From assembly GCF_007833275.1 (NCBI RefSeq), contig NZ_CP042241.1:2303490-2343489 (forward strand): 40,000 bases of DNA. Reading direction: 5' to 3'. Shown here piece by piece: positions 4,828 to 39,164 of the stretch. Under the pieces are notes generated by a model, which was given only the letters and a program-made list of their open reading frames with translations, had not been told where the DNA came from and made no database searches. Origin of the DNA: Salarchaeum sp. JOR-1. Its GTDB lineage: Archaea; Halobacteriota; Halobacteria; Halobacteriales; Halobacteriaceae. The first letter of the stretch is position 1. Each line of letters opens with the position of its first letter. The translations under genes were made by a program, and so were the position numbers.

Positions 4828-5515
4828 ACCTTCGCTAGCAACTCACTGAGGAAAGTAATTTTCGTGAAGTCATGTACACCAGAGTGAGAGTGTTAGTAAT
4901 TCTTCGCATATACCCGTACAAACTGAGCCATACGCACACCCACACACACACCTACCTAACGGCTATTTCGCCGCGAGTAATATCTGACTAATAAGAATTC
5001 AACAAATCCGAAAATCTGCAAGACAGCGGCCGGCCGTGATACAGTATAACGACCACATCTCTACCGAATTCCCCCTGAGTTATCCACAATTAGCAGCCCT
5101 TGCTGTATTTCTAGAGCGCGACATAGACTAACGGACTCAAGATGACTACGGTACTTGTGCTGGATTGTCAATGAGTGGTCTCGGCTGTCCGCGGGAGTGG
5201 GATGGCGACAGGAGATCGTAATCAGGGCCTGTTCGCGTCTCCCACCCCACTGTGTCGAATGCTCCGCGCCCCGGCCAAGTATCCATATTGCCGGTCCAGC
5301 CTCTGCGCTCCCACACCCCACCGTGTCGAGTGTTCTCCAGCAATCCAGCCCCTACCCAATGTACCGACACCCTGTATATTGTGGTTTCGGTGACTAAGAC
5401 AGTGGTTTAGTCGTGTTCTTCGTGAATGACTATCTTTGGAAGCCATCTCGATTTTCATCCGACGCATTAGACGCGGTGGTTTTATGCGGTAGGAGACACG
5501 ACCTGTGAGTAACTG
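4828..5515. other. Candidate replication-origin region upstream of orc1/cdc6
   Basis: A 688-bp non-coding gap contains an AT-richer stretch at about 4860-5060. It also carries three ORB-like repeats next to the initiator gene. Confidence 0.5.
5241..5370 (-). repeat. Three ORB-like (origin recognition box) repeats with G-strings, minus orientation
   Basis: Read as reverse complements: 5241-5262 is gcattcgacacagtggggtggg; 5310-5335 is gaacactcgacacggtggggtgtggg; 5350-5370 is a degenerate copy, gtgtcggtacattgggtaggg. Confidence 0.55.
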
Positions 5516-6736
5516 ATGGCGACCTTCACGCGGGACACCCACATCTTCCAGGACGAAGATATGTTGCGCGACGACTATCAACCAGAGACAATTACAGCAC
5601 GCGAGTCAGAGCTGGACGCCTACCAGACCGCACTCCAACCAGTCATCAACGGCGCCCAACCACGAAACATCTTCCTCTACGGCAAAACCGGCGTTGGCAA
5701 AACAGCAGTCTCCCGCTATATTCTCGAGCAACTCCAACAGGACACCCAACAGTATGACGACGTCACCCTATCTGTTTTCTGGTTGAACTGTACGAACCTC
5801 TCCTCATCCTATCAGGTTGCCGTCAACCTCGTCAATACACTCCGACCAAACGATGAGCAAATCAGCACGACGGGCTATCCCCAACAACGCGTCTTCGATC
5901 TGCTGTACACCGAGCTTGATGCAATCGGCGGCACCATCCTCATTGTCCTCGATGAGATTGATCACATTGGTACGGACGACGAAATCCTCTACGAGATTCC
6001 ACGCGCCCGCTCAAACGACTACCTCACCACCACTAAACCCGGTGTCATCGGCATCAGCAACGACTTCAGCTTTCGCGACAACCTCTCGCCAAAAGTCAAA
6101 GACACCCTTTGTGAAGAAGAAATCCACTTCTCCCCATACACCGCGCCCGAACTCGAAGCTATTCTTGAACGCCGTGCGGAAGGCGCCCTCTACGAGGACG
6201 CGACTGAATCCGGGGTGCTCTCGTTGTGTGCGGCACTCGCCGCCCAAGACTCGGGCAGCGCACGCCAAACCCTCGACTTGCTATATCAGGCCGGTGAACT
6301 GGCTCGGGCCGCCGACCGCACACAGATCACCGAAGACGACGTCTACGCCGCCCGTAACAAACTCGAACGCAGCCAAATCGAACAAGGCATGCGAGAACTC
6401 ACCCGCCACGGCCATCTCTCGTTAGTTGCTGTCCTCCAACTTGCCCTCGATTCGAACGCCCCGTTCCGCGTTCGAGATATCTACCCAGCGTATCGAACAA
6501 TCGCCGAACAATCAGAGATCGATCCATTAGTCCGGCGACGAATGCACGACCACCTCGCCGACCTCGCCATGCTCGGCATCCTCGATCGGCAGTCCCGCAA
6601 TGAGGGCCGGTCTGGTGGTCAATACTACGAATACGAATTCGCCGTCGACCTTGACCTCGTTGCGACGGTCGTCACTGACTTCGACGGTATCACCCTGCCA
6701 CAGCGCGTTCGGAACGTGACACAGTCTGTCGAGTGA
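5516..6736 (+). CDS. orc1: Orc1/Cdc6 replication initiator (AAA+ plus C-terminal winged helix)
   Basis: 406 aa. Walker A is GKTGVGKT and Walker B is LIVLDEID. The sensor region reads [14 protein letters not shown]. The C-terminal wH region is present. Confidence 0.95.
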
Positions 6737-6790
6737 CGAGATTGTCGCACACGGAAGGAAGGGCGGGGCTGACTGCTCGCTGCATCAAGA

Positions 6791-6941
6791 GCATTCGACA
6801 TCGTGGGGTGGGAGAGAACGCCCACGCCACCACCTCTCAATACCCCACCAGTAGCCTGCCGGTTCAACTGGGTGGCTCGGTCCGAAGAACATTCGACACA
6901 GTGGGGGGACTCTGTTCACCCAACCATTCGACACAGTCGAG
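6791..6941 (+). repeat. Three ORB-like repeats downstream of orc1, plus orientation
   Basis: 6791-6812 is gcattcgacatcgtggggtggg, a 20/22 match to the inverted copy at 5241-5262. 6887-6908 is gaacattcgacacagtgggggg. 6925-6941 is cattcgacacagtcgag, a half-site without a G-string. Confidence 0.55.
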
Positions 6942-7033
6942 TCTGAAAAAAGAGTACCCTGGCAACACAGGACCTATGTAATAACCTCTGACGGTCGATC
7001 CGCCAACCGTCTGATCTACCTTGACGGATATTA

Positions 7034-7987: not shown

Positions 7988-8041
7988 TTGAACCCGTGAG
8001 TTTAACCCGGCGGGTTCAACCGGGTATTATCAGCGAGCGTA

Positions 8042-12404: not shown

Positions 12405-12758
12405 TCAGGTGTCGTATCGGATTTCGCTGAGATGGTCCCAGAGTTCGACGCAGCCGGAGTCGTACTTGACGTTCCGGAGGTAGCCCGGACGACCGCCTTC
12501 GTCACGTGCGTCCTCGGAGGCCATCGCTCGGGGTGGGTTGCGGAAGAGGAGGTCGCCGATGAGGACGAGCGCGAACACGGAACTCACGCCGATCGCGAGG
12601 TTCTGCATTGCGGGAACGACACCGGCAAGACCGATTCCGACGGCGAACACGCCGGCGATGCCGAGGAGCATGTAGTCCGGACGGGAGACTCGTTCCTGGA
12701 GCGTCCGGTAGCCCTCTCGGCTTGCGGCGGGTTCGTGGGGTGGTTCGCCGTCGGTCAT
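12405..12758 (-). CDS. Small membrane protein (two predicted TM helices)
   Basis: 117 aa with hydrophobic segments LLGIAGVFAVGIGLAGVV and AIGVSSVFALVLIGDLL. I prefer it over the opposite-strand ORF 12300..12773, which is Arg/Gly-rich. Confidence 0.55.
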   Translation of the reverse strand: MTDGEPPHEPAASREGYRTLQERVSRPDYMLLGIAGVFAVGIGLAGVVPAMQNLAIGVSSVFALVLIGDLLFRNPPRAMASEDARDEGGRPGYLRNVKYDSGCVELWDHLSEIRYDT

Positions 12759-12805
12759 CGTGCGTGGCAGTGATAGCGTTTCTCTAAAAAACCTGGTGGT
12801 AGGGG

Positions 12806-14152
12806 TCAGACGAGGCTAGTGCCGTCGAACTCCCGCTGATCGTAGTCCATCTCCATCAAGTCGAGAATCGTGGGCGTGATGTCGTAGAGGTTCGTGTCCG
12901 CGATGCTGGCCGCTGGGTCATCGACGAAGAGCGTGGCGTCGTCGAACGAATGCATCCCGTTCCGCGGGCCGTGCTCGAACACGTCGTGGTCGTCACTGAA
13001 CCCCGCCTTCAGGTCGAAGCCCTCACGGGGGATCGCGACGAGATCGGGCGCGATGTCATCGTGTGGGCCCGCGAACGCGTCCGCCTTCGTGACCACGCGC
13101 TCGATCACTGGGTCGCCGTCCGGGCCCGTGAGCGATTCGAGCTTCGCCGCGAGGTCGTTTCGAACGTCGTCGTAGTCCGCCTGGGGAACGCTCCCACGTG
13201 GCTCGCGGCCGTCGAGGTTGAGGTAGAACCGCCCCGGAATGAACGAATACGCCTTCGTCTCGCTACTGATGTCGTCAAGATTCTCCGGGTCGCTCGTTCG
13301 GAAGTCGAGCCAGCCCTCGGCGTGAAGCCACGTGTTCAGGTAGACCTCGTACGCCTCGGTCTGGAAGCCGTGATCCGAGGCGACGATAAGCGTCACATCA
13401 TCCGGAAGCTGGTCGCGGAGCCGGCCGATGTACTCATCTACTTTCTCGTAGAAATCGAGAAACTCCTCCTTGTACTCGCCGTCCTGGGCGTAGTCGCCGT
13501 AGAGGAAGTGGTTCACGCGATCCGTGGTCATGAACACCCCGAAGAAGAGGTCCCAGTCGTCCGCCGCGATATAATGAGAGAACGCCTCGTAGCGCGCGTC
13601 CAGCGTCTCGTGGGCGTTCTCGATGAACGCGGACTTGTCGTCTTGGTGGCCGAGTTTCGCGTTCGCGTCGATCCGGTAGTCGATGGACTCCAGGTACTCT
13701 GCGACCTCCTGGTCCGAGGACGCCTTCTCGATGCCGGGGGAGAGGAATCCGGAGACCATGCGCTGGAGGTTCCCCTGGGGCGGGAAGGTGACGGGGACGT
13801 TCACTACTGTGGCGTCCCGGCCGGCGTCCGTGACGCGATCCCAGACCCGGGTCGCCTGCACGTCACGCCCCATCGGCACGTACGTCTCGTAGCTTCCGTT
13901 CTCCCGATCCTGGAACCCATACACGCCCGTCTCACCTGGATTCACGCCGGTGGTGAGCGCGGGCCAGCACGCCGACGACTCCGGCGGCACAATCGACTCG
14001 ATCTCCCCACTTGCGCCGTCCTCACTGAGCGCGTGGAGGTTCGGGAACACGTCTGGGTTGTCCTGGATGAGGCTGTCGGGGACGCCGTCGATGCCGAGGA
14101 AGGCGACGCGGGGCTTGTCGGTGTCGCCGCGGAGTTTATCGAACAGCCCCAT
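12806..14152 (-). CDS. Alkaline-phosphatase-superfamily protein (nucleotide pyrophosphatase/phosphodiesterase-like)
   Basis: 448 aa. The N-terminal VAFLGIDGVP and CWPALTTG segments and the later LIVASDHGF segment are metal-site motifs of this fold. Confidence 0.85.
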   Translation of the reverse strand: MGLFDKLRGDTDKPRVAFLGIDGVPDSLIQDNPDVFPNLHALSEDGASGEIESIVPPESSACWPALTTGVNPGETGVYGFQDRENGSYETYVPMGRDVQATRVWDRVTDAGRDATVVNVPVTFPPQGNLQRMVSGFLSPGIEKASSDQEVAEYLESIDYRIDANAKLGHQDDKSAFIENAHETLDARYEAFSHYIAADDWDLFFGVFMTTDRVNHFLYGDYAQDGEYKEEFLDFYEKVDEYIGRLRDQLPDDVTLIVASDHGFQTEAYEVYLNTWLHAEGWLDFRTSDPENLDDISSETKAYSFIPGRFYLNLDGREPRGSVPQADYDDVRNDLAAKLESLTGPDGDPVIERVVTKADAFAGPHDDIAPDLVAIPREGFDLKAGFSDDHDVFEHGPRNGMHSFDDATLFVDDPAASIADTNLYDITPTILDLMEMDYDQREFDGTSLV

Positions 14153-14155
14153 CGT

Positions 14156-15175
14156 TTACATGTACCCGAGATCGCGAAGCCGCTCCATCAGGTCTTCCTT
14201 GTCCTGGGCGCGGCCCGCACGCTCCGTGGTCTCTTCAAGGTTCTGCAACCACGCCGGTTCGTCCTCGGCCTTCTCCGTACTGACCTCCGACCCGAGACTC
14301 CGGAAGCCCTCGAAGTACTTCGGCGATATGGGGATGTCCGCGTGCGTGAGGTCGTTCGGGAGATCGTCGTAGGATTGGGGGACGTAGCCGTCGTCCGGGA
14401 ATCCCGCGACGGTTTCGGGGACGACGTAGTACCAGAAGGCGTCCCAGACCGCGCGCTCGTCGAACTGCAGGATCGGCTGCACTCGATCGTGGGGCGGATA
14501 GATATCGGGGTCGTGACGCGGCGAGTAGAACGTCTCGTCGGCGCGGGCTTCCTGTTCGTCCCACCGAATCCCACTGAAGATGCCGTCCACGTCGTACTCC
14601 TCTAAGGCGTCATTGAGGGCGACGGTCTTCAGGAGGTGGTTGCCGACGTAGGTGTCGAGGAGGAACGGGAAGCTGTCTTCCTCGTACTCGAGGAGGTCGC
14701 GCACGTGGTGCTGGTTGTGCTCCGAGAGTTCGCTGATCGGGATGTCGTCGCCCGGCGTCAGGTCGTGTTCGGCGACATACTCGCCGACGTCCTCGTTCCG
14801 CGCGTAGATGACGTCGAGCTCCCACTCTTGGGCCCAGTAGTCGACGAAGTCATGGAGGTCGTCGAAATGCTGGAAGTGATCGATGAAGATTGCTGGTGGG
14901 AGGTCGTACCCGAACTCCTCCGCTACTTCCTTGACGAAGTAGAGCGTGAGGGTGGAGTCCTTCCCGCCCGTCCACATGATCGCGGGGTTCTCGTACTCCT
15001 CCAGGCCCTGTCGAGTGACTTCGATAGCCTTCTCGATCTTGTCTTCGAGACTCGGATACTCCTCGGGAGATTCGTTCTCGCCGCTACTGTAGTCGACGTC
15101 GAGATACTCCGGGAACGACTGACTGGCCATGACTATACCGACGACGTAGTCTGGGGAGGATAAAGGCTTGTTCAT
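14156..15175 (-). CDS. PAPS reductase / ATP-sulfurylase-subunit-2 family protein (PP-loop ATP pyrophosphatase)
   Basis: 339 aa with a PP-loop (WTGGKDSTL). It sits 3 nt upstream of the phosphodiesterase-like gene. An alternative start is ATG 15130. Confidence 0.85.
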   Translation of the reverse strand: MNKPLSSPDYVVGIVMASQSFPEYLDVDYSSGENESPEEYPSLEDKIEKAIEVTRQGLEEYENPAIMWTGGKDSTLTLYFVKEVAEEFGYDLPPAIFIDHFQHFDDLHDFVDYWAQEWELDVIYARNEDVGEYVAEHDLTPGDDIPISELSEHNQHHVRDLLEYEEDSFPFLLDTYVGNHLLKTVALNDALEEYDVDGIFSGIRWDEQEARADETFYSPRHDPDIYPPHDRVQPILQFDERAVWDAFWYYVVPETVAGFPDDGYVPQSYDDLPNDLTHADIPISPKYFEGFRSLGSEVSTEKAEDEPAWLQNLEETTERAGRAQDKEDLMERLRDLGYM

Positions 15176-26279: not shown

Positions 26280-29200
26280 CTACTGCGAGCCGTGGTATTC
26301 AGGACGGGCGGGACAGTTCCAGCGTAAATCACACTCGGAACAGGTTCCCTCAGATGGCGCGTCCGCGGGAGATATGTCGAACCAATCGCCGCCTTCTCGA
26401 TCCTGTTCGATGTCATCTACGGTTTCTTCGAAAGCGGAGAGTGAACTCTCCACTGAGCCCTCTTGGAAATTGAGTTCGAAGACCGCATTGTCTCGATCGT
26501 CTTCTCCCAAAAAGTAGATGACTCCCCTCTCGGGATATTTGCCCTGCTGATAGCGGTATAGTTCTGCATAGGTGTTCAGCTGGGCTTGGTAGTCGTTCAG
26601 CTCCCGACTCCCGTCCGGCCGTTGTCCCGCCTTGTAGTCCCAGATCTCGTAACCGTCTACGTCGTCCCCCGCGAGAACGTCAACGACCCCTTCCAGAACG
26701 AAGTCATCCCGGTTGCTCTGAAGGCGGTGTTCGGTGTCAACGACTCGCGGGTAGAGCCGCTCGCCTTCCTTCCTGTTGAAGCGTTGGATGTACGAGAGCG
26801 CAGTGTCTTCGGCCTCTTGGCTCATCGGATAGATATTCCGGGCTTTCAGCGCTTCGGCCACCTCGCGGAAGTACGTGGCAATCTCGTCGTCGGTCGGGAT
26901 CGTGCCTTCGTCGATGTCCTCGATTTCACCCGCGTAGTGTCGGTGTGCTCTATCCAGCGTTTCGTGGACCACTCGTCCGAAGAAGAGCTGTGTGACGTGG
27001 TTGGGTGCGAAATCGAGTTCGTTGTAATACCCGTACTGGCGCTTACACCGGCGGTAGGCTAGGACGTCACCGGTGATGCTATACCTGCGTTTCAGCCCGA
27101 CATCGCTGTGGGGGCCGACACTTCCACCCACCAAGTTGAGGAAGTCGTCAGCGGATTCGATTTCTCTGGCCCCTGTGAACCAGTTCTCTGTCAGAGGGTC
27201 ACCTTGTTCGGTATAACCCAGGGAGAGATCAGTCGTCGCCCCCTCTTGGTCAAGTAGAAGTAGGTCGTCCTCCGCTCGGGAGTACGCCACGTAGAAGCGG
27301 CGGATCTCGTCTCGATTGGCTCTCTCGTCAGTAGTTCCAGTCGGGTGTATGTCGGCATACGGCTCTAATTGGTCCTCCAGCCAGTAGGTGCCGCCCGTCC
27401 AAGGTTCGCTGTCCAGGTCACTGACGAAGGTCACCGGGAATTCGAGGCCCTTGGCCTGGTGAACGGTCATCATCTGTACGAAGCCGTCCGGGATCTGGTC
27501 GTGGGGATCCTCTGGTTCGTCGAAATCGGACGCCTCCAGGTACCCGCAGAACACGTAGTAGAACGAGCCGAGGAATTGAGTTGATACGGACAGCGTTCTC
27601 GAAGACTTCTGCATGTGTTCCGGTCCGGTGATACTGGCGAAGGAGTCGAACAACTTGGAGAGGCGACCGAGCCTCTTCCCTCGCTCCGGGCGATCGGGAG
27701 TCTCGATCCATGTCTGGAATGGCTCGAACGAGAGGATCCGGTAGAGAAGTTCGAGGACGGTGTATCCCAGCGACTCGCTGTCACCTGCACGTCTGAGTTC
27801 GCGCCGTTTCCTGCGGACGTAACTGTCCAGCTCTGTCGCATCGTGGTCGTCAACGAACTCATCGAATTCCTCGTGCCAGTCCTCGATCTGTCCCTTAACT
27901 CGGCCCATAACGCGTGCCGCTTCCACTCCCTCCAGTTCGGGATCGAGACAGCGAATAACAGCGCTCAGCGCGAACTGGACTTCCTCCTGTTCCAGAAACG
28001 CCTTGTTTCGAGGATTGTGAACGGGAATATCCCGATCCCGGAGAGCTTCCGCGTATTTGCCGGCCCATCGGGAGGTCTCCTTCGTGCTCTTGAAAAGGAA
28101 CGCAACTTGGCTGTAATCCTCGATGTACCCTTCGTCGTGGAGCTCTTCGACTAATTCAGCCGCTGTTTCCGCGGGATGTTCGTCACTGTCACCGATCAGG
28201 AGCGACTTGACACTCTTCCGTTCCCCCGTCTCCTCCCGGCCCACGTCCATCGACTCCTTGTTCGGAGCGCGTGCCCCCTCTCGCTGCATGAGGGGGTACT
28301 CGTTCATATATCGGTTACACCAGTCCACGATATCTTCCGTAGAGCGGTAGTTCGTGTTCAACTGCTCCCGCTGAACGGATTCACCAAATCGCTCCTCAGC
28401 GCGCTCCGGGAACTGAATCAGACACTCCACGGTACCGCCCCTGAAGCGATACAGAGCCTGGTCATCGTCACCGACAACGGTTAGATTCGGACTATCGAGC
28501 TCCTCCGTCAATCGGAAGTAGAGCTCTTGCTGAAGCGGATTCGTGTCCTGGTACTCGTCAACGAGGATGTGTTCGAGAGGCGGGCGCTCGCGCTCCGGTT
28601 CCCCTTGAATGAACCGGCTGCCGGCCTCGCTTCCTATGAAGTCGATGAACCGCTCTAGAAGGCGGGCAAAGTCACATCGGTGATTCTCCTGTAGAGTCTC
28701 GCGGTATCGCTCAAGTCCCTCAGCGCAGACCCGCCACTCGGGTTCCGGGGCGCGACGCAGAGCCTCCGTGTCCGCCAAGTACTGGGACACCCGATTGAAT
28801 ATCTGAGAAGCACCATCGGTCGCCTGCCACTTGTTTGGGCCGTACTGAGGGCTGACGCCGCGCGGCAGCACCTTCTCGAAAAACTCCCACGCGTCTTCCG
28901 ATAGTTCGTCCGAAGAGACCGTCTCCCAGTTCTCTGCGTCGGCATTCCCTTGGAGAACGGACACGAAGTCACAGTTGTTGTACATGAAGAGCTGCTGACC
29001 GTCTTCGTCGAGGAGTTCTGTATTCGCGTAGGCGGGATACCGATACTCCTGCATTATATCGTTACAGAGGGAGTGAAGGGTCCCGATGTGGATTTCGTTG
29101 ACATCGACGTCGTCCTCGAATCCGAATCGGTTCAACCGGTCAACAATCCGCTCTTCCAGGTTCTGAGCGGCCTTCTCGGTGAACGTCGTGAGGAGGATAC

Positions 29201-29426
29201 TTCCCGGAGCGACGTCGTCAACGAGAAGGAGTTTGAGCGTCCGCGAGATCAGCACCTCGGTTTTTCCACTTCCCGGTCCCGCAGTAATCCAAAGCGGCCC
29301 GTCGCCCGCGAGTATCGACCGCTCTTGGCTGTCGTTGAATTCCCAGTCCTCGTCATCGAATCGCTCTCTGTTCGCTTCTTCCAGTAACGAGATGAAGGCG
29401 TCCTCAGAAAGCGGGAGAGATGGCAT
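26280..29426 (-). CDS. UvrD/Rep-type SF1 helicase fused to a C-terminal Cas4/AddB-like PD-(D/E)XK nuclease with a 4-Cys cluster
   Basis: Walker A is AGPGSGKTE. Other helicase motifs are TFTEKAA, ILVDEYQDTN and MTVHQAKGLEF. The C-terminal region has C(RRCKRQY), EIWDYK and CSECDLRWNC, i.e. the C-x2-C-x5-C pattern. Confidence 0.9.
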   Translation of the reverse strand: MPSLPLSEDAFISLLEEANRERFDDEDWEFNDSQERSILAGDGPLWITAGPGSGKTEVLISRTLKLLLVDDVAPGSILLTTFTEKAAQNLEERIVDRLNRFGFEDDVDVNEIHIGTLHSLCNDIMQEYRYPAYANTELLDEDGQQLFMYNNCDFVSVLQGNADAENWETVSSDELSEDAWEFFEKVLPRGVSPQYGPNKWQATDGASQIFNRVSQYLADTEALRRAPEPEWRVCAEGLERYRETLQENHRCDFARLLERFIDFIGSEAGSRFIQGEPERERPPLEHILVDEYQDTNPLQQELYFRLTEELDSPNLTVVGDDDQALYRFRGGTVECLIQFPERAEERFGESVQREQLNTNYRSTEDIVDWCNRYMNEYPLMQREGARAPNKESMDVGREETGERKSVKSLLIGDSDEHPAETAAELVEELHDEGYIEDYSQVAFLFKSTKETSRWAGKYAEALRDRDIPVHNPRNKAFLEQEEVQFALSAVIRCLDPELEGVEAARVMGRVKGQIEDWHEEFDEFVDDHDATELDSYVRRKRRELRRAGDSESLGYTVLELLYRILSFEPFQTWIETPDRPERGKRLGRLSKLFDSFASITGPEHMQKSSRTLSVSTQFLGSFYYVFCGYLEASDFDEPEDPHDQIPDGFVQMMTVHQAKGLEFPVTFVSDLDSEPWTGGTYWLEDQLEPYADIHPTGTTDERANRDEIRRFYVAYSRAEDDLLLLDQEGATTDLSLGYTEQGDPLTENWFTGAREIESADDFLNLVGGSVGPHSDVGLKRRYSITGDVLAYRRCKRQYGYYNELDFAPNHVTQLFFGRVVHETLDRAHRHYAGEIEDIDEGTIPTDDEIATYFREVAEALKARNIYPMSQEAEDTALSYIQRFNRKEGERLYPRVVDTEHRLQSNRDDFVLEGVVDVLAGDDVDGYEIWDYKAGQRPDGSRELNDYQAQLNTYAELYRYQQGKYPERGVIYFLGEDDRDNAVFELNFQEGSVESSLSAFEETVDDIEQDREGGDWFDISPADAPSEGTCSECDLRWNCPARPEYHGSQ

Positions 29427-30435: not shown

Positions 30436-31131
30436 TTATGTCTCGGTATAGTCCGGCCGCTTCGCGTAATCGATGGGATCACGCTCGCCGAGATTTTGGA
30501 ACGCCTGAAGGCGGAACGCACACGCGTCGCAGGTACCGCAAGCCGGTTCTTCCTCCCGGTAGCAGCTCCACGTGTGTTCGTAGGGGACGTCGAGTTCGAG
30601 CCCTCGTTCGGCGATGTCGGTCTTCGACCACTCGTCGAACGGAGCTTCGATACTGATCTCCGTCTCGGGTTTCGTGCCGACGTCAACGACCTGCTGGAAC
30701 GCCTCGAAGAACTCGGGGCGGCAGTCAGGATATCCCGAGAAGTCCTCGGTATGGGCGCCGATGAACACCGCATCGCACTCCTTGGCTTCCGCGTACGAGG
30801 TCGCCATGGAGAGGAGGTTGGCGTTCCGGAACGGAACGTAGGAGGACGGAATCTCGTCGCCTTCCAAATCCGCGTCTTCGACCTCCATCTCGTCGTCGGT
30901 GAGACTCGAGGATCCAATCTTCGAGAGGTGATCCGTCGTGAGGTGGAGGAAGTCCGCGGCGTCGAAGGCTTCGGCCTGCGCCTTCGCGCATTCCAACTCC
31001 TTGCTCTCGGTCTGCTGGCCGTACGACGTGTGGAGCAGGTATAGGTCGTAGCCGGCGTCCTGAGCGACTGCGGCAGCAGTTGCGCTGTCCATCCCACCCG
31101 ACGCCAGGACGACCGCCCGCGGACGGCTCAT
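30436..31131 (-). CDS. queC: 7-cyano-7-deazaguanine (preQ0) synthase QueC
   Basis: The PP-loop is LASGGMDS. The C-terminal zinc site reads WSCY...CGTCDACAFR. Confidence 0.93.
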   Translation of the reverse strand: MSRPRAVVLASGGMDSATAAAVAQDAGYDLYLLHTSYGQQTESKELECAKAQAEAFDAADFLHLTTDHLSKIGSSSLTDDEMEVEDADLEGDEIPSSYVPFRNANLLSMATSYAEAKECDAVFIGAHTEDFSGYPDCRPEFFEAFQQVVDVGTKPETEISIEAPFDEWSKTDIAERGLELDVPYEHTWSCYREEEPACGTCDACAFRLQAFQNLGERDPIDYAKRPDYTET

Positions 31132-31736
31132 AGGTCTTCCTCCCGGACAATCGCGTCGCGGAACTGTTCTCGTTCCTCCTCAGTCAGATCTCCGACGGAG
31201 GCCCTCGTGGTGGTCGTACTTTCCGTCTCTACGCCGCGCATCGCCTCGCAGAGGTGTGTCGCGTTGACCTCGACGAGTACCGCGGGAGCATCTATCTCAT
31301 CGGCGAGTCCAGAGGCGATGTCGTTCGTCAGCCGTTCCTGCATCGTTAGCTGTCGTGTCTGCCAGCGGACGTACCGCGTGAGTTTCGACAGGCCGACGAC
31401 TTCTCCGTCCGGTCGGTATGCGACGTGGGCCGTCCCGAAGAACGGCAGCAGGTGGTGTTCGCACAGGGAGTAAATCGGGATATCCGTCTTGACGACGAGG
31501 TCGTCGGTCTGGGCGTCGAACGTTCGCATCGTCGGCTTCGATGCTTCCCGCTGGCCCTCTGTGAGGGTCCTAAAGGTCTCGGGAACGCGACGCTGCCACG
31601 TCTCGGTGAGCCCATGGCGCTCGGGATCTTCCCCCACCGCTTCTAACAGGAGGCGGACGCCGCGCTGTGCTTTCTCGTAGTCGATGTCTCTCTCGCTGCC
31701 AGTCTGCTGCTTCAGTTCGGAATGTGAGTTCGTCAT
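31128..31736 (-). CDS. folE: GTP cyclohydrolase I (FolE type)
   Basis: 202 aa from ATG 31736. Diagnostic segments are SLCEHHLLPFFGTAHVAY and VVGLSKLTR. The ORF-track extension to 32189 overlaps queE out of frame. Confidence 0.9.
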   Translation of the reverse strand: MTNSHSELKQQTGSERDIDYEKAQRGVRLLLEAVGEDPERHGLTETWQRRVPETFRTLTEGQREASKPTMRTFDAQTDDLVVKTDIPIYSLCEHHLLPFFGTAHVAYRPDGEVVGLSKLTRYVRWQTRQLTMQERLTNDIASGLADEIDAPAVLVEVNATHLCEAMRGVETESTTTTRASVGDLTEEEREQFRDAIVREEDL

Positions 31737-31737
31737 G

Positions 31738-32511
31738 CTACGTACCAGGAGCGTCGTTCCAGAGATCCACATGCAGTCGCGGAGTGTATCGATAGCCGTG
31801 CTCCATCGCCAGTTCCGCGACCTCGATTCGCTTTTTGTCGAGTTCCTCGCGGGTCGTACCCTCCGGCATGAGGAGGACATCCGAGTCGGGAACACGACTA
31901 GATGCTGTACTTCGAATGTCTTCGACCAGATCCTCGATTTCGGGCATGTCATCGGGACCGGTAACGACGAATTTGAGTTGGGTGTCGTACTCGTCAACAA
32001 GTTCTCCGAGGGCGTCGAGATCGATCCGACGGTCGTCGTGGCGCTCGGCCCACTCGCCGTTACCTTTCGGATCTTTGTCCGGCGTCGGGGCGCTCGATGC
32101 GAGTTTCGGGCTGATGCTCGCCAAGTCGATGGGTACGTCTCGATAGATAGTTCCGTTCGTCTCCACGGTCGTGTGGTAGCCGCGGTCATCGAGACGCTCT
32201 AGGAGCGAGACCGCCTCGTCGTGGATGAGTGGCTCACCTCCCGTCAGGACGACGTGCTCGGCGTTCTCGTGTGACTCAACCTCCGCAACGATGTCGTCGA
32301 GACTCATGTTGGCGTGGGTGGGCTCCCACGAGGTGTGGTAGGAATCACAGAACCAACACCGGAGGTTACAACCACTCGTCCGAACGAACACCGACGGTTC
32401 CCCTGTGAGTTTCCCCTCGCCTTGGAGTGAGTAGAAGAGTTCGTTGATCGGGAGCGTCTCTCCGTCGGCGTTTGGAGTCTTCCCCTGATCGGGGGTCGAA
32501 TTCACTGGCAT
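31738..32511 (-). CDS. queE: 7-carboxy-7-deazaguanine synthase QueE (radical SAM)
   Basis: FYSLQGEG and the cluster motif CNLRCWFCD are present. Confidence 0.92.
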   Translation of the reverse strand: MPVNSTPDQGKTPNADGETLPINELFYSLQGEGKLTGEPSVFVRTSGCNLRCWFCDSYHTSWEPTHANMSLDDIVAEVESHENAEHVVLTGGEPLIHDEAVSLLERLDDRGYHTTVETNGTIYRDVPIDLASISPKLASSAPTPDKDPKGNGEWAERHDDRRIDLDALGELVDEYDTQLKFVVTGPDDMPEIEDLVEDIRSTASSRVPDSDVLLMPEGTTREELDKKRIEVAELAMEHGYRYTPRLHVDLWNDAPGT

Positions 32512-32972
32512 TACTGAGTAGCTCCCGCACAGAGTTCTGAGGTCTCTCTGACTCGAGCTGAGACATCCGATACCGAGTCCGGAAGTGCTGCGAGGAGTTT
32601 GCGCTCCAAGACGACACTCATCACCTCCGCCGTAGGTGGATAATCTAGTACGACGACCCCGTCACCTTCGCCGCTCTGCTCGAATGCGTCAATCAAGGGA
32701 TCGCCTTCCTCGAGGAGAAATCGATGATCCCACTCAGATATTATTGAAGTAATATCTCCTTTGTCCACTATCCACCCGTCTTCGGAGAGTGTCCCCGTGA
32801 CTTTGACTGATACCTGATAATTGTGACCGTGCGGACGACTGCACTTTCCGTCGTGATGTAGGATGCGATGCCCTGTGCTGATTCTAATCGGACGGTCCTC
32901 GCCCACGTATAGTGTTCGCTCACCTGCTTCGGCGAGTTGGGGCGAGGACTCCTGTTCTAAGGACATGGACAC
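32511..32972 (-). CDS. queD: 6-carboxy-5,6,7,8-tetrahydropterin synthase QueD
   Basis: The PTPS-fold motifs HRILHHDGKCSRPHGHNY are present. The start is GTG 32972 or ATG 32966. It overlaps queE as TAATG. Confidence 0.9.
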   Translation of the reverse strand: MSMSLEQESSPQLAEAGERTLYVGEDRPIRISTGHRILHHDGKCSRPHGHNYQVSVKVTGTLSEDGWIVDKGDITSIISEWDHRFLLEEGDPLIDAFEQSGEGDGVVVLDYPPTAEVMSVVLERKLLAALPDSVSDVSARVRETSELCAGATQ

Positions 32973-33090
32973 CTCTTCTTAGAGTATGCACTAAATATTA
33001 TCGGAGGAATACTGTGGTGGTTCTTCGTGGCGAGAGAAAGGGATATTCATATGGTGGAACGAAGTAAGGCTAAGACAGTGAATCTAATCT
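32973..33090. promoter_or_regulatory. 118-bp divergent promoter region between queD and the DpdA-like gene
   Basis: An AT-rich box ctaaatatta lies at 32991-33000, about 20-28 nt from the queD start. ggatattcatat lies at about 33040-33051, upstream of ATG 33091. Confidence 0.45.
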
Positions 33091-35994
33091 ATGAGGTTCT
33101 ACGTTCCTGAGTGGGATGATGCGGTCGATGCGAACTACGATTTCGAGCATGACGAACTCTCCACCCTCGACCGTCAGGAGCGCGAGCTCAACTACATCTG
33201 GGACATCTTCGACCGCGAGACAACGCCTATCGACGGAGTGCTTATTTCCCGTGAACAGGTAGAGGAGACTAAAAAGAAGGCGGAGCGCCTGGCTCAATAC
33301 GGCGTCTACGATGACCCCGTTCTCTCAGTTCCGGACTGGCTTCCGACTATCAGTGACTGCGGAGCTTGGGGGTACAAATCGCTCCCCTTCCCGCCCTATG
33401 GAAACGAGGAGATGCTCGATTTCTACGAGACTTTGGAGGTCTCCGTAGGGGTCACGATCGATCATCTCGTGCTCGGGTCTGGTAAGGACAAGGGACGCCT
33501 CTACCTCGATGAACGGGCCTTCGGAGACGGGTTCGAAGAGAGCGACATTCCCGACGCTCTCGAAGATGTCGTTGACCTGATGATCGACGAATGGCCTGAC
33601 GAGTGGCCTGAGTACGTTGACGAATACGAGCCCTCTATTCAAGCTGAAGATGGCTCAAGCGTGGAGCCCTTTAGTTCCGGCACTTTCCGTGGCGATATCG
33701 ATGCCGTTCTAACTGAGTTGGAACACGATCCGCGTGCCGTCTATCGGGCCGACGACAAAACGTTCCGCTACAATCTCACCCTCCGCAATGCCCGGGAAAT
33801 GTACGAGTTGTACCAGGCCGAGGATCGCCCCTTCCGTCTCATGGTGGCGATTCAAGGCTGGGATCCCGAATCATATGTCGAAGCCGCTGAGGAGGTACTC
33901 GACATCGGGTACGGCTACCTCGGCATCGGGGGCGTTGCGGGGAGTCCAGTCCACGAAGTGAGGAAGATCGTTAAGGACGTCGGGAAGACCATCAAGGCGT
34001 TCGAACGTGAGCACAACAGACGGGTCGATTCTCACGTTTTTGGTTTTGCGAAGTCTGAGGCGTTCGAAACCATCGGTCGTTCCGGAATGTCGAGTTTCGA
34101 CAGTGCGAGTATGTTGCGTTCAGCCTGGACTGGAGGCGAGAACTACCGCCTAAATAACGACAAACGATACGACGCTATTCGAGTACGGTATCCGTCCAAC
34201 GGTGACGACCTCCGAGAGGCCGTCGAAAAGTCACTCCGAGGTAGGGAGGTTCTCGTTTCCTTACGCGCCTATGACGCAGAGAACTCGATTGAGGAGGAAA
34301 TCTGGAACTGGCACCGGAAAGCTGAGGAGGTGCTTCCTGCGACCCGTGATTATCTGCGCGACCAACGGCACGACGAGCGGTATAACGCGTCCAGGTTACA
34401 GGACATCGAGACAGCATTCCGGGATGATTTCGAGTACGCCAGGGAGCTTCAAGCCTCCTTCAGCGACGACCTGCGAGGGCGGATCGTTAAACTCCTTCGT
34501 GAGGACACCGCCGAGGACCCGATACCCTTCGTGGAGTATGATGAACTGCTCACGGTAGCGGAAGAAGAATTTGAGAAATTCCCGCGGATGCCGGCGGCTT
34601 TCAATAGTCAGGAGCACCAGAACCCCTACGACCACGTCTGGACTGCCGTCCGGGACTATGCCGAGTGGATTGGAGACGATGGTCTATTGGAGGAGTACCG
34701 AGATACCCTGAGGGACCGACCGTGGGAGAAGTGCGAGTGTCCCATCTGCGAGACGAACGGGATCGAGGTCTGCATCTTCCGCGGCAACGACCGAAACCGG
34801 CGTCGCGGCTTCCACAATACCCGCCGCTTCTACGACGAGTTCGCCGCGGAACTCCCAAAACTGCTCGTCGCTGTCGAGGGAACTGCCAAACTGAGCCGCT
34901 TCGAGTCGATCGAAGAGTACCTCCGAAGCGAACACCCCGACTTCTGGGAGCGCGTACACGACCTGCCGGTCGCGGAGGTCGGCGTCATCGACGCGGGGGG
35001 AGTTCACGAATCGTGGTCTGGAACGCCGTCTACTGTCTCCTTCTCGCCAGATAGGGTGGAGGAGAATTTAGCGGCACAAACAGCACGCTATCAAAAGTTG
35101 TTCCTCCTCACGACCGGCGGGGAAGCGAGCGACGCCATTTCCGGAGCCGTTGAGCAGAGTGGTTGCGAACTCCACACGTTTAGTGAGTCCGAAGCCCTAC
35201 GAGAAGGGGCACTTGATGCGTGTGGTCGAAACTACGTCGCCGGTGATGATTTCGTTCCTCATCCTCCCGAGCTCGATGTCCGTGAGGGGTTGGATGTCCT
35301 CGTCATCGACCAGTGTTCCGGTTCCAAAGATATCCCAGAGGGGGCTCCCGTCTTCGATGCAGATGAGACGCTGGAATTTTCGAAGGAAGACCTGCTGAGT
35401 CGAGACAACGTTCCTGGAATTGCCGCGCGGGATCTCTATACTGGCCGACAACAGGGATTCGTGAAGGACGCTGCACGCCGGTTACGTAGTCAGGGTCACG
35501 ACGTTGAGCGATACTTCATAAGTGCTGGGTTCGGACTCGTGACCGAGGAGGAATTGCTCCCTCCCTACGAGGTGACGTTCAGTTCGATGAACGTCGGAGA
35601 AATAAGAGAGCGGTCTCGCCTCCTCGGAATCCAAGAGGACCTGAGAAAAGTATTGCACGAGACAGACTACGATGTCGTCTTCTTCACTCTCGGGAGCGAT
35701 TACTACACGAGCATCGATATTGACGAGATGGTTCAGCAAGTCCGTCCGGACCGTATCGGAGTGGTGTTCAACCGTGAACTAGTCGGTGATCAATTCGAGA
35801 ACATTGTGTCGGTCCCCGCCCGAACGGAAGATGCGAAGAACCACGGTACAATCGTCGTAGGGCTGAAAGGACTCTATATGAAGAATTTCGCCCAACGTCT
35901 TGAGAATGTAGATATGTTGGAACCGGATAATATCGAGTACCTTTGCCGGCACGTAGAAGACGGCCCGACTCAGGCGGCTTTCGAGAAGTTTTAG
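33091..35994 (+). CDS. DpdA-like (TGT-superfamily) transglycosylase fused to a C-terminal domain of about 330 aa of unknown function
   Basis: The N-terminal MRFYVPEWDDAVDANYDFEHD resembles the start of bacterial DpdA. TGT-fold hallmarks are present: LGIGGVAG, FGFAK...MSSFDSAS. The zinc motif is CECPICE...FHN. The C-terminal part has VLVIDQCSGSK, LYTGRQQ, ISAGFGLV and PPYEVTF. Confidence 0.8.
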   Translation: MRFYVPEWDDAVDANYDFEHDELSTLDRQERELNYIWDIFDRETTPIDGVLISREQVEETKKKAERLAQYGVYDDPVLSVPDWLPTISDCGAWGYKSLPFPPYGNEEMLDFYETLEVSVGVTIDHLVLGSGKDKGRLYLDERAFGDGFEESDIPDALEDVVDLMIDEWPDEWPEYVDEYEPSIQAEDGSSVEPFSSGTFRGDIDAVLTELEHDPRAVYRADDKTFRYNLTLRNAREMYELYQAEDRPFRLMVAIQGWDPESYVEAAEEVLDIGYGYLGIGGVAGSPVHEVRKIVKDVGKTIKAFEREHNRRVDSHVFGFAKSEAFETIGRSGMSSFDSASMLRSAWTGGENYRLNNDKRYDAIRVRYPSNGDDLREAVEKSLRGREVLVSLRAYDAENSIEEEIWNWHRKAEEVLPATRDYLRDQRHDERYNASRLQDIETAFRDDFEYARELQASFSDDLRGRIVKLLREDTAEDPIPFVEYDELLTVAEEEFEKFPRMPAAFNSQEHQNPYDHVWTAVRDYAEWIGDDGLLEEYRDTLRDRPWEKCECPICETNGIEVCIFRGNDRNRRRGFHNTRRFYDEFAAELPKLLVAVEGTAKLSRFESIEEYLRSEHPDFWERVHDLPVAEVGVIDAGGVHESWSGTPSTVSFSPDRVEENLAAQTARYQKLFLLTTGGEASDAISGAVEQSGCELHTFSESEALREGALDACGRNYVAGDDFVPHPPELDVREGLDVLVIDQCSGSKDIPEGAPVFDADETLEFSKEDLLSRDNVPGIAARDLYTGRQQGFVKDAARRLRSQGHDVERYFISAGFGLVTEEELLPPYEVTFSSMNVGEIRERSRLLGIQEDLRKVLHETDYDVVFFTLGSDYYTSIDIDEMVQQVRPDRIGVVFNRELVGDQFENIVSVPARTEDAKNHGTIVVGLKGLYMKNFAQRLENVDMLEPDNIEYLCRHVEDGPTQAAFEKF

Positions 35995-36044
35995 CTTCGA
36001 CTCCGTTAATAAATCTCATTTCTTTTATCATTCTATCGGGCTAG

Positions 36045-36070
36045 TATTTAAGTTGGATAGCGAGCTATCC
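36045..36070 (+). promoter_or_regulatory. TATA-like TTTAAG box followed by the palindrome ggatagc-ga-gctatcc
   Basis: tatttaag lies at about 36045-36052. The perfect 7-bp-arm palindrome lies at 36055-36070, just before ATG 36082. Confidence 0.4.
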
Positions 36071-36081
36071 GAGCGGGAGGC

Positions 36082-37116
36082 ATGTTGTACAGACGACGGA
36101 AACTCGACCTCCCGCATGGGAAGGTGCAAACCCCAGTGCTATTCCCTGTCCGCAATATCGGGAAGCGGTCGAGTGACAATACGCCGGCGTACGTCGGCAC
36201 TATCCCGGACTTCTCGACAGCGATGATTAACGCTCGTTCGATCCGGAACCGGGAACCAATGTGGAACAGGCTAACCAACGGAGTCACGTTACGGGAAGAG
36301 ATGGATGTCCCAGAGGACACGATAGTCTTCGCCGATAGCGGGGGGTTCGATTTCACCGCCGAGGAGATCGACACTACCCCAGCAGAAACTCTCGATACCC
36401 AGGCCCAACTGGGAGCGGATATATACGGAACTGTCGATGTCCCCCTTTCGAGAGAGAACCGCGCAGCGGAAAATCAACGTCGTATCGACCAGAGCGTCGA
36501 ATACGCTCTCGAGGCAAGTGATCGCCACACGGGAGACGCGTTGCTCTTCGCAAGCGTGCACGGGTATGATCCCGAGACCATCCGGAACAGCATCCAGCAT
36601 CTAGAAAAGAATGGGGATTTCGATGGATACGCTCTCGGAAGTATGGTCCCCATCCGAACCGACTACAAAAAGGTAACCAAACTAGTACTTTCGGCGAGAC
36701 AGGCTACAGACAAGCACTTGCACGTGTATGGTCTCGGCGGCATCGTCTACCAACCGCTCCTGCTGTACCTCGGTGTCGATAGCTTCGATTCCTCGGCGTT
36801 CATCCGAAGTGCGGGCAATCGGAACTATTTGATTCCCGGATTCGGTGGCGAACCGCTACGGAACATTGAGTCGTTAGATAGACTCCCCTGCCCGTGCCCT
36901 GTGTGTGGACAGCGGGAACTAGACGAGATCCGTGAGGACCGGACCGCTCTCACCAAACACAACCTCTGGGCTCTGGCGATTGAACTCAGGCGATTCCGGT
37001 ACGTCGTCGAAGCGGGACGGGACGTTGAGGAGTATCTCGACCTCCGGTTCCAGGGGAACGAGGTGACGCGACGGGCATACGAAACCGCCAAGCAGCAAGT
37101 GCGGAGGCTCACATGA
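36082..37116 (+). CDS. Compact TGT-family transglycosylase (no PUA domain), DpdA-like
   Basis: 344 aa. Diagnostic segments are FADSGGFDF, YALGSMVP and VYGLGGIVYQPLLLYLGVDSFDSSAFIRSA. The zinc motif is CPCPVCG followed by ...KHN. Confidence 0.85.
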   Translation: MLYRRRKLDLPHGKVQTPVLFPVRNIGKRSSDNTPAYVGTIPDFSTAMINARSIRNREPMWNRLTNGVTLREEMDVPEDTIVFADSGGFDFTAEEIDTTPAETLDTQAQLGADIYGTVDVPLSRENRAAENQRRIDQSVEYALEASDRHTGDALLFASVHGYDPETIRNSIQHLEKNGDFDGYALGSMVPIRTDYKKVTKLVLSARQATDKHLHVYGLGGIVYQPLLLYLGVDSFDSSAFIRSAGNRNYLIPGFGGEPLRNIESLDRLPCPCPVCGQRELDEIREDRTALTKHNLWALAIELRRFRYVVEAGRDVEEYLDLRFQGNEVTRRAYETAKQQVRRLT

Positions 37117-38009
37117 CCGAAGAGAGGGCCACAATCCGACCAGTCAACCTAAGCCGCTTGGTGGAACTCACCCACGTATGCGAAGAGGGAACCAAATCCA
37201 CGGAGGAAGTCGAGGTTGCCCTCGACGTCAGCCACAAACGTGCGCGAGAGGCCATCCTCGAAGCAGAACGTGTCTCGCTATTGTCTGAGAAGGGTGACGA
37301 AGAGGAGTCCGTTTACGAGACCACTGATATTGGAGAGTCGTTTTTAGAGGCTGTCCGAGAGGAGGACTGGGAACGCGCTAGTTCCATCCTTGCCACCCAC
37401 AGTCCTCACTACAAGTCGTTCATCGAGACTTTAGACGAGGATGGGCAGGGCAGTTTAGATGCCCTATTGGAACGACTTGAAGATACCCAAGAGTTCACCC
37501 CGTACTCGTTCAACCAGACCGGGATTGAGGTCGTCGGTGACTGGGCGGAGCGTCTGGGACGCGTCCAACGCAACGCATTCTCCGGAAGTTACTACCTGAC
37601 GGACCGTTCTGAAGTGCCGCCGAACTTCCACTTCGTGTTGCTCGAAGTTTACGACGACCTCGAACAGACTGCGGGGGTGGACTTGCGTCAACGGTATCTG
37701 TCGATTCCGAGACTCCGCGAAGAAGTATGCGAACGGCTCGGTTGTACCCGCGATAACTTCGACGACGCCTTGCTCGCGGTATGTCAGCAAAACGTAGGTA
37801 AACTCGAACTCTCGGGCGCCCCTCTGGACTCAGCAGCAAAGGACGCCGCTCTCGGCATCAAGCAGATGAAACGGTCCGATGAAGACGGGCTCGTGACGAC
37901 ATCCCAGTCCACACAGCAGGTAATGAACGGAGTGGAACTGTACGACAAACAATACTACTATCTCGCGGTGTACGACCGCGACATCACGTTCGATACGGAG
38001 GCTTCCTAG
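37113..38009 (+). CDS. Hypothetical protein with a probable N-terminal winged helix
   Basis: 298 aa. It has an ATGA overlap with the TGT-like gene, and its stop abuts the next ATG. The N-terminal LSRLVELTHVCEEGTKSTEEVEVALDVSHKRAREAI is HTH-like. Confidence 0.7.
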   Translation: MTEERATIRPVNLSRLVELTHVCEEGTKSTEEVEVALDVSHKRAREAILEAERVSLLSEKGDEEESVYETTDIGESFLEAVREEDWERASSILATHSPHYKSFIETLDEDGQGSLDALLERLEDTQEFTPYSFNQTGIEVVGDWAERLGRVQRNAFSGSYYLTDRSEVPPNFHFVLLEVYDDLEQTAGVDLRQRYLSIPRLREEVCERLGCTRDNFDDALLAVCQQNVGKLELSGAPLDSAAKDAALGIKQMKRSDEDGLVTTSQSTQQVMNGVELYDKQYYYLAVYDRDITFDTEAS

Positions 38010-39164
38010 ATGTCCAACGCATTCACGATTAGTGACGAACAGCAAGACTACTCACAATACGACCTAAACGCGAATCCGTTCCCGTACAGCCCGGTTCCGA
38101 ACGAGAATCCCGAAATCTACTGCGGGCAGCAACACGTCTCCGACAAGATCAGTTCGACGGTATCATCGATGCTCGCCACTGGGAAGTCCAAGCACCTCGT
38201 GGTGACTGGGAAGTACGGAAACGGGAAGTCACACACGCTCAAATACACGCGCTCCTTGCTACGAGACCGGGAAGATGTCGTCGTCGGATACGTGGCGCAA
38301 CCCGGCGATGGATTCCTCGACATCTACCACGAGTTCGTGTACGATCTTGGATTCAACCGGATTCAGGAGTTAGCCTACGAGTACCTCGCCTCGGTTACCC
38401 GCGACGTCACGGACACCAATCCGATGGGTGCAGAATCGATGGAGTCACTCATCGACGAAGGAGATGTCCTGTTATCCGATATCGTACCAGAAGCCATCCG
38501 AAGACTCAGCGACGTCACCAAGTTCGCCGACTTCGCCAGGGCGATCGTCCATATGGTCTACGAGGACACGAACCTCTACGCCTGGCAGTGGCTGACTGCG
38601 GAGGGGATCCGGTACGAACAGCGTAAGGAGATGGAGATTCACAGCGCCCTCGACGACGACACGATGGGGGTTCGAGCGTTCACTGCCTTCAAGAACATGC
38701 TGTTGGACCTCGGGTACACCGGCGTGTTCGTGTTCGTAGACGAGTTCGAGAGCATCGCACGACTCACCCCGAAGAACGAACAGGCGACACTCAACAGCAT
38801 CCGGCACCTGATGGATCAGAACAGCTCAGGCCTTTGCATCTTGTTCGGTTGCGCTCCAGAAGTGTGGCAGGACGTTATGAGCGAATATCACGCTTTCAGC
38901 GAGCGAATTGGACAGGAGGTTTCGTTACGTCCGTTAACCAGCGAACATCTCTACGAACTGGTCGAGAACTACCTCGATAAGGAACGGCCATCAACTGTCG
39001 AGAGTCGCATCCGGCCATTCACCGAGGAGAGCCTCGATTTGATTCTCCAGCGGTCACAAGGAAACGTACGTCAAGTTCTGGCTCTATGTAGCCGTATATT
39101 GGACGATGCGGCAAACGAAAACCGTCAAGAAATCACTGTAGATTTCGTAGAAGAGGCGATTTAA
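38010..39164 (+). CDS. AAA+ ATPase (Orc/Cdc6-clade-like, without a winged-helix domain)
   Basis: Walker A is GKYGNGKSH. Walker B is VFVFVDEFES. The sensor-2-like segment is GNVRQVLALCSRILDDA. Confidence 0.8.
   Translation: MSNAFTISDEQQDYSQYDLNANPFPYSPVPNENPEIYCGQQHVSDKISSTVSSMLATGKSKHLVVTGKYGNGKSHTLKYTRSLLRDREDVVVGYVAQPGDGFLDIYHEFVYDLGFNRIQELAYEYLASVTRDVTDTNPMGAESMESLIDEGDVLLSDIVPEAIRRLSDVTKFADFARAIVHMVYEDTNLYAWQWLTAEGIRYEQRKEMEIHSALDDDTMGVRAFTAFKNMLLDLGYTGVFVFVDEFESIARLTPKNEQATLNSIRHLMDQNSSGLCILFGCAPEVWQDVMSEYHAFSERIGQEVSLRPLTSEHLYELVENYLDKERPSTVESRIRPFTEESLDLILQRSQGNVRQVLALCSRILDDAANENRQEITVDFVEEAI

Follow-up and report, generated by a model that had tools for sequence, protein, structure and literature searches.

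Origin recognition boxes (ORBs) are sometimes found in both intergenic regions of haloarchaeal orc genes, with H. marismortui cdc6g among the examples (Wu et al. 2012, PMC3528665), and in Haloarcula hispanica the region downstream of one such gene, cdc6E, carries 11 ORBs (oriC2D) that show no activity as an origin, reduce the copy number of plasmids and proved impossible to delete (PMC3936714). The same study proposes that oriC2D titrates the initiator, likens it to E. coli datA, and describes an H. lacusprofundi homologue with three downstream boxes as well as downstream ORBs at many other ori-cdc6 loci. An earlier note on the DNA studied here, made from its letters alone, had referred to a negatively acting downstream region of this kind in H. 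hispanica, and correctly so, the ORB-rich region after cdc6E being a negative regulator of oriC2 (PMC3936714). Here we compare these systems with a locus in Salarchaeum sp. JOR-1, which lies in a 40,000-nt stretch of DNA (the window; positions 2,303,490-2,343,489 of contig C1, which is 2.344 Mb long with 66% GC and together with the 179-kb contig C2 makes up a genome of 2.52 Mb). Taken together our sequence comparisons suggest, with a probability of roughly 0.6, that this locus is a horizontally acquired accessory orc1-origin module, consisting of an intact orc1/cdc6 gene that we call orcA and of boxes that its product would recognise. This kind of module has already been catalogued in other haloarchaea, and the window is a fresh example of it.

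The OrcA protein has a Walker A motif (GKTGVGKT at residue 56) and a Walker B motif (ILIVLDE at residue 141), and at columns that are invariant in eight orthologues it shows only nine private substitutions. This full-length initiator gene directly adjoins the boxes. When we searched the window for the core CATTCGACACAGTGGGG with up to three mismatches, we found five strong copies of CAYTCGACACRGTGGGG, at 5245-5261(-), 5316-5332(-), 6792-6808(+), 6890-6906(+) and 6925-6941(+), where 0.08 copies are expected by chance and none of 100 shuffles reached five. With up to two mismatches the motif occurs at those five sites only in the whole 2.52-Mb genome. Moreover, a position weight matrix (PWM) of 23 nt, built from the window copies and the copies of one orthologue (maximum score 38), gave the five copies scores of 28-38 when run over both contigs, the next best site genome-wide scoring 19 or less. 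The box consensus in the OrcA lineage is GAA-CAYTCGACACRGTGGGG-TG. Repeated G-string boxes, at least two in number, are therefore present in the flanking intergenic DNA (four of the copies have the G-string and one the core only), and the downstream intergenic region of 297 bp holds three (+) boxes, the first of which starts 53 nt past the orcA stop codon.

These results refine the description given in the earlier note. The 22-mer at 5241-5262 that it had matched to 6791-6812 in 20/22 positions is contained in a longer inverted pair, 5238-5264 and 6789-6815, of 27 nt and 93% complementarity in our repeat search. Further copies had been listed at 5310-5335, 6887-6908 and 6925-6941, all of which we recovered, and at 5350-5370, which we did not (best PWM score -14). 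The layout of a core followed by a G-string holds for four copies, but the one at 6925-6941 keeps its core without the string. Likewise the claim of one orientation on each side of the gene is true of the five strong copies, but the upstream side also includes a (+) copy at 5462-5484, which had been overlooked.

This additional copy is found in the probable promoter of orcA. Its last letters are GGTGGTTTTA, it stops 32 nt short of the ATG, and a second half-site, CATCCGAC, stands in front of it. Taken alone its PWM score of 13.1 is at chance level. An alignment of the 140 nt upstream of the start codon from ten loci gave the consensus CAYnnGAC-G-CAYTCGAC-RCGGTGG-TTTTAT, in which TGGTTTTAT is invariant in 10/10 loci. 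With a single exception the full-length loci give a PWM match here, and between its end and the ATG there are 31-32 nt in the window and in the eight others that have it. Most orthologues additionally have a (-) box 85-93 nt before the ATG, at the position where the window has a decayed remnant. About 126 nt with 53% AT, compared with 34% in the genome, separate the (-) box at 5313-5335 from its (+) partner at 5462-5484, which is degenerate and lacks the G-string; in 6/9 loci, the window among them, the start of an AT-rich 40-mer falls at -92 to -98. No consistent helical phase was seen by eye in the box spacings (71, 98 and 35 nt here, 55-96 nt in orthologues). Between 4600 and 8100 there were no Rfam matches to structured RNA, and consensus scans for bacterial-type promoters and terminators stayed at shuffle level in the same interval. 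All features of the locus are collected in Table 1.

Table 1. Features of the orcA locus in window coordinates, with PWM scores where a box was scored
Feature	Position	Strand	Details
orcA, intact Orc1/Cdc6, 406 aa	5516..6736	+	AAA+, lid and C-terminal winged-helix matches (AAA+, Cdc6_lid, Cdc6_C)
orcB, 5'-truncated orc1/cdc6 remnant, 317 aa	7034..7987	-	convergent with orcA; outside the conserved module
Upstream ORB, distal, with G-string (GAGCATTCGACACAGTGGGGTGG)	5242..5264	-	PWM 33.7
Upstream ORB, second copy, with G-string (GAACACTCGACACGGTGGGGTGT)	5313..5335	-	PWM 37.8
Decayed promoter-proximal (-) ORB remnant	5404..5428	-	window GTCGTGTTCT, orthologues GTCGAGTGTTCT; G-string part lost; no PWM match
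AT-richer stretch, candidate unwinding element, conserved position	5419..5458	.	62% AT; between the (-) ORBs and the promoter box
Promoter-proximal ORB-like box, G-string replaced by TTTTAT (5480-5485, probable TATA box)	5462..5484	+	PWM 13.1; alignment of 10 loci
Downstream ORB 1, G-string	6789..6811	+	PWM 28.9
Downstream ORB 2, G-string	6887..6909	+	PWM 33.9
Downstream ORB 3, core intact, no G-string (...AGTCGAG)	6922..6944	+	PWM 28.0
Alternative candidate unwinding element	4978..5017	.	most AT-rich 40-mer (75% AT) of the 687-bp upstream intergenic region; outside the ORB pair

OrcA has orthologues in Halorubrum, Halopenitus, Halovenus, Natronomonas, Haloarcula and Halobacterium, with protein identities of 74-88%. 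The nearest plasmid-borne relative is on Halorubrum lacusprofundi pR1SE2 (71% nucleotide and 78% protein identity), whose gene has six (-) boxes upstream, a single (+) box immediately in front and a further two (+) boxes behind. A scan with one genome per species added seven more full-length orthologues, 77-79% identical, from Halopenitus, Halovenus, Natronomonas and Halorubrum, together with the defective copies described below. We found that every full-length copy, including the one at 74% identity in the genome G207, has (-) boxes upstream and (+) boxes downstream. In fact, counting boxes with a score of at least 18 across loci, 33 upstream boxes are (-) and two are (+), and all 34 downstream boxes are (+); the numbers range from 1-6 upstream and 1-4 downstream, and the downstream (+) cluster is conserved in all orthologues. 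Copies that are truncated or frameshifted also still have their downstream boxes. The Haloarcula mannanilytica copy is frameshifted, and in Halolamina pelagica and Halorubrum aidingense only C-terminal stubs are left, with the boxes kept. The closest copy of all (88% protein identity), in Halobacterium sp. CBA1126, is 5'-truncated, apparently through insertion of a mobile element that removed about the first seven codons and the whole upstream origin and left four downstream boxes (L027 1560-1680). The replacing sequence ends in a GC-rich hairpin, which may be similar to the ends of haloarchaeal IS200/IS605-type elements.

Nucleotide homology between the window and its orthologues extends from 5453 to about 6690 and otherwise covers individual boxes, with no other intergenic sequence conserved. 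As a phylogenetic footprint this shows that selection has preserved the boxes but not the intervening DNA. A survey of the class found the exact box in 47 of 401 sampled genomes, or 19 of 91 genera, with no match for a reversed control, and in some 18-20 of the 47 box-bearing genomes (-) sites are followed by (+) sites 1.3-2.3 kb on. The boxes are specific to the OrcA lineage and conserved in sequence, side and orientation across genera, and very probably represent the cognate sites of OrcA. In one genome of the same order (G028, C1:615210-616306) two (-) and two (+) boxes stand merely 478 nt apart, too close to accommodate an orc gene; this cluster might represent an origin without an orc gene or mark where such a gene was deleted. 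A viral origin of the box was considered and rejected, the exact box occurring in IMG/VR on two contigs. It is single there and the contigs have no orc gene, so we take these matches to be chance.

Several observations point to acquisition of the locus from elsewhere. Among 40 relatives searched there was no copy more than 58% identical to OrcA, the closest being a paralogue on contig C2 of the same genome. Synteny with the three genomes compared from the same genus was confined to 12.4-15.2 kb of the 40-kb window, which as a whole is strain-specific. GC content is low (0.48-0.62, compared with 0.66-0.70) from about 2.286 Mb of C1 to the contig end and also over the first ~32 kb, in which a tyrosine recombinase is encoded at C1:31220-31813. 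If the contig is circular these stretches would join into an island of ~90 kb, which may be an integrated element by which orcA was introduced; its contents include insertion sequence (IS) elements and defence genes.

Among described systems the window has much in common with H. marismortui oriC4-cdc6g in variable region VR2 (PMC3528665, PMC4441112), which has the same 23-nt box, GAACACTCGACACGGTGGGGTG. We took the G207 locus to be its match, as over the 70 nt preceding its start codon it does not differ from the cdc6g upstream sequence in print. According to the supplement of the Wu et al. study, the cdc6g flanks contain an OrcA-type box upstream (-), a GGTGGTTTTAT box before the start and three (+) boxes downstream (PMC3528665); similar to the window, (-) boxes lie upstream, a (+) box ending in GGTGGTTTTA stands 32 nt before the ATG and (+) boxes, here also three, follow the gene. 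Both loci moreover sit in strain-variable chromosomal regions, and for that of cdc6g it has been argued that origins are gained and destroyed all the time (PMC4441112). In the intergenic sequences printed by that group (PMC3528665) the OrcA-type box is found beside cdc6g only, and not in the H. hispanica entries. The earlier suggestion that the repeats are ORBs of a predicted origin next to orc1/cdc6 is thereby supported at the level of sequence and literature, through the conserved boxes, their near-invariant orientation and the listing of cdc6g (PMC3528665). However, although a highly similar ORB is present beside the orc gene, the 74% identity of the cdc6g protein to OrcA is below the 80% that the authors ask of an origin family (PMC3528665), the other orthologues being 77-88% identical. 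The cdc6g locus also differs in having 4-6 upstream boxes rather than two and a second upstream repeat type that is absent from the window, and it is itself a predicted origin only. A further repeat, GAGAGTACGTTTC, occurs twice beside an orc gene at 1.512 Mb of the Salarchaeum chromosome (C1:1509769-1509895) and three times in the distal upstream region of H. marismortui cdc6g, which therefore carries two box types, this one and that of OrcA.

The likeness to H. hispanica oriC2-cdc6E is one of arrangement. There too cognate boxes occupy both intergenic regions, the downstream cluster lies directly past the stop codon, and oriC2 has been proposed to be an imported origin under tight control, similar to the module suggested here. 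The window has a corresponding cluster of its own boxes directly downstream of the gene and apart from the upstream origin, but no homology to cdc6E or to the oriC2 boxes was found; the Orc lineage and the box are both different, and the window locus is not a homologue. The 11 boxes of oriC2D are spread over 722 bp, as against three in 297 bp, and its negative effect comes from knockout and copy-number assays in H. hispanica, whereas for the window we can only infer one. E. coli datA is similar in that its initiator sites are clustered away from the origin core and reduce the amount of free initiator, although it belongs to the bacterial DnaA system with its unrelated proteins and sites, and lies far from both dnaA and oriC. 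With regard to polarity, the G-string is essential at H. hispanica oriC1, and the minimal oriC1 has a C-run in its left ORB and a G-run in its right ORB (Figure 5 legend, PMC3936714), so that the G-strings point away from the unwinding element, which is the same polarity as in the (-)...(+) order upstream of orcA. Finally, the H. volcanii ori-pHV1/4 beside orc10, a proven and dominant autonomously replicating sequence (ARS; Norais et al. 2007, PMC1868953), has the core CACTCGACACGGTGG in common with the window; many of its repeats have an extra upstream half-site, as does the window promoter box, and the last repeat is near the gene start. However, its repeats end in TGT and not in a GGGG string, all but one point in the same direction, and they are found upstream only, with no downstream cluster in the 1.2 kb scanned past the gene. 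Despite the common core, we rejected a placement of OrcA in the orc10 family, since H. volcanii Orc10 is only 31% identical to it.

From these comparisons we can sketch how an accessory origin at orcA might work. OrcA would bind each box as a monomer with fixed polarity, and the G-string ends would as a result point away from the gene. The origin core would be the upstream unit, made up of the (-) boxes at 5242-5335 and the (+) box at 5462-5484, with melting and MCM loading taking place in the AT-richer stretch of ~126 nt between them. Because the (+) box is fused to the orcA TATA element, OrcA would also be expected to repress its own transcription. The three downstream (+) boxes might form an auxiliary Orc-binding cluster that titrates OrcA and damps initiation; this is suggested by the analogy with oriC2D, and that the cluster acts negatively is put forward tentatively. 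A bolder proposal, to which we assign a small chance, is that the locus is a self-contained portable replicon cassette with the initiator gene inside its own origin. Given the outward-facing arrays, and the TATA-fused box at its constant distance of 32 nt from the ATG, OrcA filaments or loops would then bridge the two arrays across the 1.2-kb gene, and a single element of 2 kb would link initiator expression with origin licensing and copy control. The spread of the exact box over 19/91 sampled genera would fit a cassette moving between replicons, and a coupled cassette of this kind, if true, has not been described as such before.

A number of points weigh against an accessory origin that is still at work. 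Upstream of orcA there are only two strong boxes, compared with as many as six at orthologous loci, the (-) box nearest the promoter is decayed, downstream box 3 has lost its G-string, and the promoter box has two private mismatches and the lowest score among the orthologues (13.1). The stretch enclosed by the upstream boxes is only moderately AT-rich (53%), with the highest AT content found beyond the inverted pair. Along the chromosome the cumulative GC skew has its peak at 640-660 kb and shows no clear turn at the orcA locus, and we found no experimental test of any member of the cdc6g/OrcA lineage in the literature. In H. hispanica only 5/7 predicted origins are ARS-active, so origins predicted beside orc genes can be silent (PMC3528665). 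We put the chance that the origin fires in Salarchaeum sp. JOR-1 under ordinary growth at slightly below even. A dormant or decaying relic, that is, genuine ORBs of a once-functional imported origin that has fallen silent and is heading for the truncated state, would account for the lost proximal (-) box, the weakened promoter box and the downstream box without G-string as erosion. It is in keeping with the relatives that represent every stage of decay (truncated in CBA1126, frameshifted in H. mannanilytica, stubs in H. pelagica and H. aidingense), with the neighbouring orcB, which is itself a truncated orc, with the missing skew signal and with the non-functional, dormant predicted origins reported in variable regions (PMC4441112). 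Yet orcA encodes a full-length protein whose ATPase motifs are intact and whose private substitutions are few, its five boxes still score 28-38 of 38, the TATA-fused promoter box retains the invariant TGGTTTTAT, and a recently acquired island would not have shaped the skew yet. We consider such a relic unlikely, but the likeliest of the alternatives, ahead of a purely regulatory Orc paralogue and, last, of transposon ends.

That the boxes are regulatory sites only, acting as looping or repressing operators for an OrcA that is a DNA-binding regulator or has some other role outside replication and initiates nothing, seems improbable to us. One box is fused to a probable TATA at a fixed distance from the ATG in orthologues, a repression loop could arise between the boxes that flank the gene, and haloarchaea are rich in orc paralogues, as the seven orc-like matches in this genome illustrate; not all of these can be initiators. 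Arrays of up to six boxes with a G-string that is essential at H. hispanica oriC1 nevertheless exceed the requirements of an autoregulatory operator. The core CACTCGACACGGTGG is moreover present in the repeats of ori-pHV1/4, a proven ARS of H. volcanii, and ORB clusters next to orc genes are the usual mark of a haloarchaeal origin, 5/7 of those predicted in H. hispanica being active (PMC3528665). Still far less credible is a reading of the repeats as terminal inverted repeats of an orc-bearing mobile cassette instead of protein-binding origin boxes. The 27-nt inverted pair does bracket the gene with 93% complementarity, the genomic contexts across genera are unrelated with homology stopping at the boxes, and IS elements are nearby. 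However, the motif occurs nowhere else in the genome, which also answers the concern in the earlier note that the repeats might prove to be mobile-element ends found elsewhere, and unlike transposon ends there are several copies per side whose number and spacing vary among orthologues. One copy stands in the promoter at a fixed position, no transposase is encoded between the repeats, and no target-site duplication was noticed, though no systematic search for one was made. Considering the lack of further genomic copies and the varying number per side, we rejected mobile-element ends.

As a probable accessory origin module the locus provides a well-delimited example of the gain and loss of orc-origin modules that takes place in the variable regions of haloarchaeal chromosomes, and for annotation it is best described as a predicted accessory origin and not as the main origin. 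The comparison defines one Orc lineage by its sharp 23-nt box and the constant placement of its promoter box, and its natural series of box numbers could be used to study the initiator-titration model and Orc autoregulation outside H. hispanica oriC2. OrcA and its 58% identical paralogue on C2, which have the same architecture and a differing core, are moreover a ready pair for mapping Orc residues to box positions.

This paralogue (C2:131084-133700) has six (+) boxes downstream, and its promoter reads ...CTGCGGAC-GCGGTGGTTTTAT at the same distance from the ATG as the orcA box, with GGTGGTTTTAT about 32 nt before the ATG. Its box core is CWGCGGAC (CTGCGGAC), compared with CAYTCGAC in the OrcA lineage, so that, judging from the sequences, the cell appears to contain another Orc-box pair, distinct from that of OrcA. 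The differing core fits the linkage specificity of Orc proteins and boxes described by Wu et al. 2012 (PMC3528665). A further orc gene, at 684 kb and near the skew peak, has classical repeats upstream, and the locus beside it is likely the main origin. With the peak near another orc gene and skew uninformative on a low-GC island, we rejected GC skew as a test of activity for the orcA origin.

The second orc gene of the window, orcB, faces orcA across the downstream cluster. Its Pfam matches are to the lid and winged-helix domains only, with no Walker A, its alignment to full-length relatives begins at orcB residue 13-14, and the OrcB protein is 31% identical to OrcA. No second orc gene was found within 2.5 kb in the orthologous loci. 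The cluster had been described as lying between two convergent orc genes; its position stands, but the second gene is a 5'-truncated remnant without counterpart in the orthologous loci, and the setting between convergent genes is thus incidental. For the same reasons, together with the low identity of the two proteins, we rejected a cluster common to both genes. Exactly at the junction of orcB and the next gene on the same strand (7988-8041) GC content steps from 0.57 to 0.66 and a short inverted repeat, GAACCCG...CGGGTTC, is present, which looks like a rearrangement scar.

Elsewhere in the window, the only part with homologues in the same genus (12405-15175, 74-79% nucleotide identity) contains a type I phosphodiesterase gene and a gene with a PAPS-reductase domain. 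Genes for QueC, GTP cyclohydrolase I, a TGT-like protein, DUF6884 and BrxC/D-like proteins lie at 30436-39164, and a UvrD-PD-(D/E)XK helicase-nuclease is encoded at 26280-29426; together these form a DNA-modification and defence island of the 7-deazaguanine type.

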